Source of the DNA: an uncultured bacterium
Lineage (GTDB): Bacteria > Actinomycetota > Acidimicrobiia > Spongiisociales > UBA5794
Direction of reading: 5' to 3'
NCBI GenBank assembly: GCA_963801165.1
Contig: CAWDDT010000011.1
Location: 1 to 64,000, forward strand
DNA length: 64,000 nt
Shown here: positions 28,734 through 28,940 of the stretch, piece by piece
Layout of the letters: every line of letters starts with the position of its first letter
Numbering within the stretch: position 1 is the stretch's first letter
Notes under the pieces: generated by a model
The model's database searches: none
The model's input: the letters and a program-made list of their open reading frames with translations, nothing else
Told to the model about the DNA's origin: nothing
Program-made: the position numbers and the translations under genes

Positions 28734-28762
28734 TTGACAGGAATCGCGACCGGGGCTACTTT
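28734..28762 (+). promoter_or_regulatory. Sigma70-type promoter of the met leader/metY-metX
   Basis: TTGACA (28734-39), 17 bp, TACTTT (28757-62); predicted +1 at about G28770. Confidence 0.8.
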
Positions 28763-28769
28763 CGCCCCC

Positions 28770-28838
28770 GTGAATAACGTTACGTCGACCCGAATGATGT
28801 GCATGGCCAGCAATGAGCCGTGCGGATTTGTCATGTAA
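28770..28838 (+). CDS. Leaderless Met/Cys-rich leader peptide MNNVTSTRMMCMASNEPCGFVM
   Basis: GTG at the predicted TSS; 4 internal Met and 2 Cys codons, including ATG ATG TGC ATG; TAA at 28836-38. Confidence 0.75.
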   Translation: MNNVTSTRMMCMASNEPCGFVM

Positions 28839-28862
28839 CGAGAATCACAAGGGAAAGCAACC

Positions 28863-28898
28863 ACCCGCACCGGCTCGACCGGGAGCGGGTTCTTTTCT
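28863..28898 (+). terminator. Attenuator terminator upstream of metY
   Basis: ACCCGC-a-CCGG-ctcga-CCGG-ga-GCGGGT followed by TCTTTTCT. Confidence 0.75.
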
Positions 28899-28940
28899 GC
28901 CCCGGTAGGCCGGTCGGAAACCTTCAAGGGAGACGACCAG

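Follow-up and report, generated by a model that had tools for sequence, protein, structure and literature searches.

How a bacterium of the class Acidimicrobiia controls the methionine (Met) synthesis operon metY-metX is the question raised by the leader at positions 28734-28940 of a 64,000-nucleotide (nt) stretch of DNA from an uncultured species (assembly GCA_963801165.1, contig CAWDDT010000011.1, positions 1 to 64,000), which as a whole we call the window. The known controls of Met synthesis are S-adenosylmethionine (SAM) riboswitches, Met T-boxes, and repressors. We consider it likely, on the strength of sequence comparison, that the leader before metY controls the operon by ribosome-mediated (leader-peptide) transcription attenuation, and it appears to represent a Met-reading form of this type of control. 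We infer that the signal sensed is probably the charging of Met-transfer RNA (tRNA) and, with it, probably that of cysteine (Cys)-tRNA; joint sensing of both amino acids is plausible because the stall window includes a Cys codon. An earlier first-pass annotation, made from the sequence letters, had placed in this leader a promoter, a GTG start, a 22-codon open reading frame (ORF) with an MMCM motif, and a hairpin followed by a U-tract, and direct reading found each of them where that annotation had put it. The features of the leader are as follows.

28734-28739, + strand: −35 box TTGACA, by direct reading of the sequence
28757-28762, + strand: −10 box TACTTT, of the TANNNT type, by direct reading; 17-nt spacer from TTGACA
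28770-28838, + strand: leader small ORF (sORF) of 22 codons plus TAA, with a GTG start, presumably leaderless
28794-28805, + strand: putative regulatory codons Met-Met-Cys-Met (codons 9-12); an M-M/I-C-M core is kept upstream of metY across families
28800-28807, + strand: segment 1, the 5′ arm of the 1:2 anti-antiterminator, also recovered independently by RNAalifold
28815-28825, + strand: segment 2, partner of segment 1 or segment 3, kept as nucleotides even in another reading frame
28863-28876, + strand: segment 3, comprising the terminator 5′ arm (28863-28873) and the antiterminator 3′ arm (28865-28876)
28879-28890, + strand: segment 4, the terminator 3′ arm, in which 98% of alignment cells pair
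28891-28899, + strand: T-rich tract TTCTTTTCT, directly after the terminator stem

The GTG at 28770 lies 7 nt past the −10 box, the coding part of the sORF extends over 28770-28835 with its TAA at 28836-28838, and the predicted peptide is (V/M)NNVTSTRMMCMASNEPCGFVM. Internal Met codons occupy positions 9, 10, 12, and 22, and Cys codons positions 11 and 18. Against a background taken from six proteins encoded nearby (Met 1.4%, Cys 0.25%), the chance of finding at least 4 Met in 21 codons was 2e-4 for this sORF. Searches against NCBIfam and Pfam gave no family match for the sORF, and no leader-peptide family there fits it.

Three mutually exclusive helices (1:2, 2:3, and 3:4) can form in this leader. 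The terminator 3:4 joins 28863-28873 to 28879-28890 by 10 pairs (−18.3 kcal/mol). A complementarity with one bulge between 28815-28825 and 28865-28876, claimed in the first-pass annotation, held up as the antiterminator 2:3, in which GAGCCGTGCGG (28815-28825) pairs with CCGCACCGGCTC (28865-28876) through 11 pairs with one bulged C (−18.2 kcal/mol). To these two structures, the only ones in that annotation, we add the 1:2 helix, formed by TGCATGGC (28800-28807, codons 11-13) and GCCGTGCG (28817-28824), with −11.3 kcal/mol. The 176-nt leader folded with z = −4.42, and none of 200 shuffled sequences (0/200) folded as well. The first-pass annotation had supposed that a ribosome stalled at MMCM leads to the antiterminator and a ribosome at the stop codon to the terminator; folding both alternatives under a ribosome mask agreed, the antiterminator being the minimum-energy fold of the window leader with the ribosome A site at codon 9 or 10, and the terminator with the ribosome at the stop codon. 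We also observed that the ribosome-free sORF (28778-28840) folds back as a whole, with codons 4-7 paired to the stop-codon region in an extension of 1:2. A comparable extension in locus L027 is built from other sequences, and the register differs between lineages.

These features suggest how the element could work. Transcription would begin on the GTG at 28770 or no more than about 3 nt from it, and the RNA would accordingly be translated without a Shine-Dalgarno sequence. When Met-tRNA (and Cys-tRNA) is charged, the ribosome would reach the TAA at 28836 and cover segment 2 (28815-28825), segment 3 would pair with segment 4, and RNA polymerase would terminate at the T-tract (28891-28899). At low charging, the ribosome would stall on codons 9-12 (28794-28805) and cover segment 1, leaving segment 2 free to pair with the emerging segment 3, which would block the terminator and allow metY-metX to be transcribed. 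In RNA carrying no ribosome, segments 1 and 2 would pair and the terminator would form.

The conservation of the element was assessed in 61 related genomes, 48 of which gave a metY match at E ≤ 1e-100, and the best 30 loci were examined. The full sORF core was found upstream of metY in 21 of these 30 loci, one further carrier (L008) holds only the 3′ part, cut by the contig end, and 8/30 are without it. A degenerate pattern scan of the species collection returned at least 117 stretches, of which 20 lie before metY among the matches listed; the named matches all belong to metagenome-assembled genomes. The other 97 of the at least 117 stretches were rejected as scattered matches, for example inside long Streptomyces ORFs, the motif being too loose. 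Two alignments were used below: A1, with 32 distinct leaders after duplicate removal, and A3, with 54 distinct rows that include threonine (Thr) and Cys types. A Met-rich sORF in orthologous leaders had been named beforehand as a test of the first-pass annotation, and such sORFs were found in 43 distinct versions before metY in relatives from the window's order, with the core M-M/I-C-M. Each of these 43 leaders holds 2-5 internal Met, the contig-end-cut L008 excepted, and the sORF measures 21-23 codons in 49/54 distinct elements. Differences seen there include synonymous exchanges (TGC/TGT and ATT/ATC) as well as indels of 3 nt that preserve the frame.

The helices are conserved as well. On A1 (32 rows), the proportion of cells paired was 99.6% for 1:2, 97.6% for the antiterminator, and 98.2% for the terminator; when the registers were slid by 1-3 columns, only 26-44% of cells paired. 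Pair 60:109 of the antiterminator is G-C in 20 rows, A-U in 12, and broken in 0. The column common to all three helices covaries, with the terminator pair 109:130 appearing as C-G, U-G, or U-A and the 1:2 pair 34:60 as U-G or U-A, and compensatory changes were seen at terminator pairs 107:132 and 109:130. RNAalifold, given the alignment as its sole input, predicted 17 pairs, which are precisely those of the 1:2 helix and the terminator. In A3, an alignment that leans towards the model because it was fitted to it, the antiterminator pairs in 96.2% of cells, and 8 pairs change on both sides compared to 2.0 ± 0.9 in shuffles. The conserved and covarying antiterminator and terminator arms in relatives support the attenuator interpretation that the first-pass annotation had put forward, and the support from covariation is real but modest. 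Downstream of the stem, 4-8 T occur within 9 nt in 54/54 distinct members.

We used a covariance model of the element (R1) to search three samples of 151 genomes. In the class-wide sample, 11/151 genomes had a match, and all 11 belong to the window's order. The order-wide sample gave 30/151, with matches in families f1 (11/19), f3 (7/19), f6 (10/18), and f11 (1/14), and 0/80 genomes in eight other families of that sample. The phylum-wide sample gave 2/151: the genome of the window itself and another from its order. Among the sampled genomes, the modular Met/Thr/Cys family to which the element belongs (described below) is confined to one order of Acidimicrobiia.

The position of the sORF relative to the helices is also kept. 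In 53/53 full-length elements the stop codon starts 1-13 nt after segment 2 (10 nt in 42 of them) and 20-41 nt before segment 3. A ribosome terminating there would therefore cover segment 2 and leave segment 3 uncovered. Three members (L018, L124, and L143) have a 2-nt length difference that shifts the frame of segment 2, which then reads …SRA… and not …EPCG…; the segment 2 nucleotides are nevertheless kept, and a stop codon is found only a few nt from its usual site. Segment 2 must therefore be an RNA element, with selection acting on where the stop falls. Nascent-RNA folding could be evaluated for 51/54 elements. With no ribosome, 1:2 formed in 39 of the 51 and 2:3 in 8; masking segment 1 led to 2:3 in 47, and masking segment 2 led to the terminator in 47.

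The leaderless arrangement recurs throughout the family. In 51/54 distinct elements a −10 hexamer of the form TANNNT stops 7-10 nt short of the start codon, and 16-18 nt separate it from a TTGAC/TTGAT/TTGCA hexamer on its upstream side, likewise in 51/54. The three promoter exceptions are a truncated locus, a locus without a clear box, and an element at C5 of the window's genome for which an upstream ATG had been picked and whose promoter was found in the strict genome scan described below. The start codon is ATG in 45 and GTG in 9 of the 54, and a Shine-Dalgarno-like motif at −18 to −4 was present in 0/54. These regularities suggest that the sORF is probably leaderless, with a predicted transcription start at or within a few nt of the start codon.

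The leaderless start invites comparison with the mycobacterial poly-Cys sORFs of the Ms5788A type (10.1101/834739, PMC4633059). Both systems belong to Actinomycetota. In mycobacteria the first cistron is a leaderless sORF on which ribosome occupancy senses a sulfur amino acid, the system being locked off without translation, and the same is presumed of the window element. Control in the mycobacterial case is translational, through pairing of the Cys tract with the region around the Shine-Dalgarno sequence of the following gene, and the excerpted text of 10.1101/834739 reports no terminator. In the window, by contrast, segment 2 is the pairing partner both of the regulatory region and of the terminator arm, Met codons take the place of a Cys run, and the Cys codons (11 and 18) are single, with no consecutive Cys. 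It could still be argued that the window sORF acts mainly on translation or messenger RNA polarity in the mycobacterial manner, the hairpin and T-tract not being the regulated step. The nearest characterised actinobacterial case does sequester a Shine-Dalgarno sequence (excerpt of 10.1101/834739), the T-tract here is imperfect, and between the terminator and metY lies one more structure:

28912-28938, + strand: genus-specific hairpin (28912-28916 with 28934-28938) holding the metY Shine-Dalgarno sequence GGGAG in its loop

This hairpin is kept within the genus and, judged by eye, has a compensatory GGGCG/CGCCC version in L007, but it is limited to that one genus, while 54/54 distinct elements retain both the terminator stem and its T-rich tail; moreover, the regulatory segment pairs with the terminator 5′ arm and not with the metY Shine-Dalgarno sequence. 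We therefore regard a mainly translational role as unlikely.

In the 54 distinct elements (43 metY, 4 homoserine dehydrogenase [hom], and 7 Cys), the codon run always fits the gene behind it. The leaders before hom (NF004976, 384-423 bits, cut-off 205) carry 5-8 Thr codons in 4/4 cases, for example MNHLAATTTTTTAPEPCG, and three of the four also hold 1-2 Met. The Thr-run elements are located as follows.

L158, 1501-1626: Thr-run element before hom
L159, 1501-1628: Thr-run element before hom
L174, 1501-1631, − strand: Thr-run element before hom
L175, 1501-1631: Thr-run element before hom

The combination of Thr and Met in hom leaders suggests multivalent control of a shared pathway step. As a side observation, a SAM-I riboswitch lies on the opposite strand and faces away from the Thr-type leader at L158 (1308-1394, −) and L174 (1744-1830, +), so that a SAM-controlled gene and a Thr/Met-attenuated hom share a divergent control region.

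Cys runs define the third type. The first-found leaders before cysK/cysM-like genes for pyridoxal phosphate (PLP) enzymes (TIGR01136 at E about 1e-77, below its cut-off; Pfam PALP) carry 4-6 Cys codons in 5/5 cases. Two further Cys-run leaders, L181:2025-2156 (−) and L180:167-298, precede TusA and DsrE-like genes, which were identified only in L181, the L180 locus ending at the contig end. One of the five cysK-like elements is the second attenuator of the window's own genome, outside the window at C5:39527-39672; its leaderless-type sORF MKYALAAAACCCCCCDSTMPRG has six consecutive Cys codons, and 9 nt separate its terminator from the gene for the cysK/cysM-like PLP enzyme. Across the entire genome (4.55 megabases), a strict scan for a promoter, a start codon, an ORF of 8-40 codons, and a hairpin with T-run returned exactly 2 sites, the Met element and this poly-Cys element. 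A Thr-rich candidate at C4:664534 from a relaxed genome scan was dropped, having no convincing terminator or pathway gene behind it.

We also built a second model (R2) from the scaffold alone, from segment 2 to the T-tract. It matched 58/151 genomes of the order, and we examined the 20 strongest places not already known. Eighteen of these 20 are Cys-run leaders before orthologues of the cysK-like gene (66-76% identity), and one precedes an ATP-grasp-like gene. In L219 (about 1305-1391, −) a tyrosine (Tyr)-rich leader (…AYAYY…) stands before a biopterin-dependent aromatic amino acid hydroxylase gene and may be a Tyr-reading member, as a single case with an unclear promoter.

This swap of codons on one scaffold is the strongest argument for a ribosome-read signal. 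The question is then whether the metY leaders read Met or only Cys, as descendants of a widespread Cys-run attenuator of the same scaffold in which the Met codons carry no signal. The scaffold is indeed common to many Cys-run leaders, the MMCM core includes a Cys codon, and MetY-type enzymes can also serve cysteine synthesis, as the name of TIGR01326 indicates. However, metY leaders keep 2-5 internal Met compared to 0-1 in the seven Cys leaders, all of which precede sulfur genes, the stall window of the MMCM type holds one Cys codon where Cys-type leaders have 4-6, and the core of L016 is MMMPM, with no Cys at all. Cys-only sensing is accordingly very unlikely.

The regular exchange of codon runs also bears on the possibility of a metabolite-binding riboswitch at this site (its ligand being SAM, Met, or something related), whose expression platform would be the terminator and in which the sORF would be incidental. 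Sister lineages place metY under SAM-I (RF00162), which was present at 8/8 of the metY loci without the sORF among the best 30 loci, 87-139 nt before metY in four and about 0.8 kilobases upstream, ahead of an intervening ORF, in four; the core nucleotides of the window element are, in addition, very conserved. The first-pass annotation had seen no SAM riboswitch here, and Rfam agreed: at gathering scores, Rfam 15 matched only a tRNA elsewhere in the window, and at E ≤ 10 the interval 28550-29000 gave three chance-level matches (a piece of human long non-coding RNA, a Sulfolobus small RNA, and a small nucleolar RNA) and no SAM family. There was likewise no Rfam match to a T-box at the leader. 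The same search does detect SAM-I in relatives and elsewhere in this genome. The region from the stop codon to segment 3 varies in sequence and length and thus provides no aptamer-like core, the start and stop codons hold their position relative to the promoter and segment 2, and ahead of hom or cysK-like genes the codon run on this platform is one of Thr or Cys. Together, these results make a riboswitch at this site highly improbable. At orthologous metY loci, a SAM-I riboswitch and the Met attenuator appear to have been exchanged, in one direction or the other. The sole SAM-I of this genome (C5:643026-643109, L182) is followed by an OsmC-like gene and by C5:643999-645273, a second metY paralog that is 60% identical to the metY of the window; it therefore appears that the two genes for O-acetylhomoserine sulfhydrylase respond to different signals.

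Least probable of all is that the peptide itself is functional, as a micropeptide or as a nascent arrest peptide sensing a ligand in the exit tunnel: most members share an R/E-MMCMA...PC motif in their peptide sequence, but the C-terminal part is frame-shifted in three members while the RNA sequence is kept, residues at the N terminus are free to vary, the peptides of the Thr and Cys versions are unrelated although the RNA scaffold is the same, and no protein family (NCBIfam, Pfam) matches.

Several observations weigh against the attenuator. The −10 box is weak, TACTTT matching TATAAT at only 3/6 positions, which is why a simple sigma-70 scan missed the promoter; that simple scan called just the inner part of the terminator (28872-28891) and no promoter. 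The T-tract is not continuous. Covariation is also limited, in that most columns of the helices do not vary, and the main compensatory change, at 60:109, may have arisen once and passed down through one clade. Because codons 11-12 form part of segment 1, their conservation could reflect RNA pairing and not coding; of the regulatory set, only Met codons 9-10 lie outside the helix. Met starvation should also cut formylmethionyl-tRNA and hence initiation at the leader, which in the model would favour termination. Finally, equilibrium folds of distant members favour the terminator over the antiterminator even with segment 2 free. The decision must therefore be kinetic and co-transcriptional, as in other attenuators, and for the distant members the nascent-transcript folds described above took the place of the equilibrium-fold test.

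Compared to the classical attenuators (trp, his, thr, leu, ilv, and phe of Proteobacteria; trp of Corynebacterium and Streptomyces), the window element has the same architecture: a short ORF with codons for the end product, regulatory codons overlapping segment 1, a stop codon adjoining segment 2, mutually exclusive 1:2, 2:3, and 3:4 pairings, and an intrinsic terminator before the first gene. It differs in presumably reading Met and one Cys with only 3-4 regulatory codons, and in having an sORF without a Shine-Dalgarno sequence that starts at the predicted 5′ end. SAM-I occupies the same place before orthologous metY and also ends in a terminator, but it binds SAM directly and has no ORF, whereas the presumed signal of the window element is tRNA charging. 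Leaderless leader peptides at the 5′ ends of messenger RNAs for amino-acid genes, with proposed attenuation, have been predicted in Deinococcus deserti, which belongs to another phylum; the excerpt of PMC4007540 gives their number as 14. For Actinobacteria, the excerpt of PMC1262725 describes classical trp attenuators, Cys leader peptides without terminators, and no conserved RNA structure upstream of Met or Thr operons, and neither the excerpt of PMC2965389 nor a term search in PMC4833913 gave a Met case. The first-pass annotation knew of no characterised Met-codon attenuator, and our literature search, covering open-access papers only, points the same way: none was found in full-text searches, in Rfam 15, or in NCBIfam, the list of 14 D. 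deserti peptides, which may include a Met type, lying outside the comparison.

On balance, we lean towards a broader reading, in which one homologous platform (segment 2, linker, and terminator) behind a leaderless sORF has been re-aimed in this order of bacteria by exchange of its codon run: Met (and Cys) for metY-metX, Thr (and Met) for hom, Cys for cysK-like and TusA/DsrE genes, and possibly Tyr for an aromatic hydroxylase. The Met version would be the first leader-peptide attenuator to read Met-tRNA charging, and its exchange with SAM-I at orthologous loci would mean that one operon is tuned to the amino acid or to its cofactor derivative depending on the lineage. If confirmed, the Met element would fill a gap by showing that attenuation can respond to Met-tRNA charging despite the need for Met in initiation itself. 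The natural series of codon swaps (Met, Thr, and Cys) on one scaffold offers a test of how attenuators gain specificities, the exchange of riboswitch and attenuator is documented at orthologous genes, and the covariance model can be used by annotators of Acidimicrobiia for cis-regulators and tiny genes that are now missed.

The genes behind the leader are the following.

28941-30257, + strand: metY, O-acetylhomoserine sulfhydrylase (TIGR01326, 703.7 bits, cut-off 495.1)
30254-31330, + strand: metX, homoserine O-acetyltransferase (NF001209, 379.2 bits, cut-off 331)

The start of metX overlaps the stop of metY. In a single RNA run (word share 0.05), at 90% likeness, short contig pieces fell on conserved metY coding sequence only and none on 28600-28973. 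The gene upstream of the leader (27779-28600) sits on the opposite strand. Antisense to it, an open frame of 213 codons (28197-28838, +) enters the sORF in the same frame, and this frame looks like an artefact of high G+C content and not a gene.

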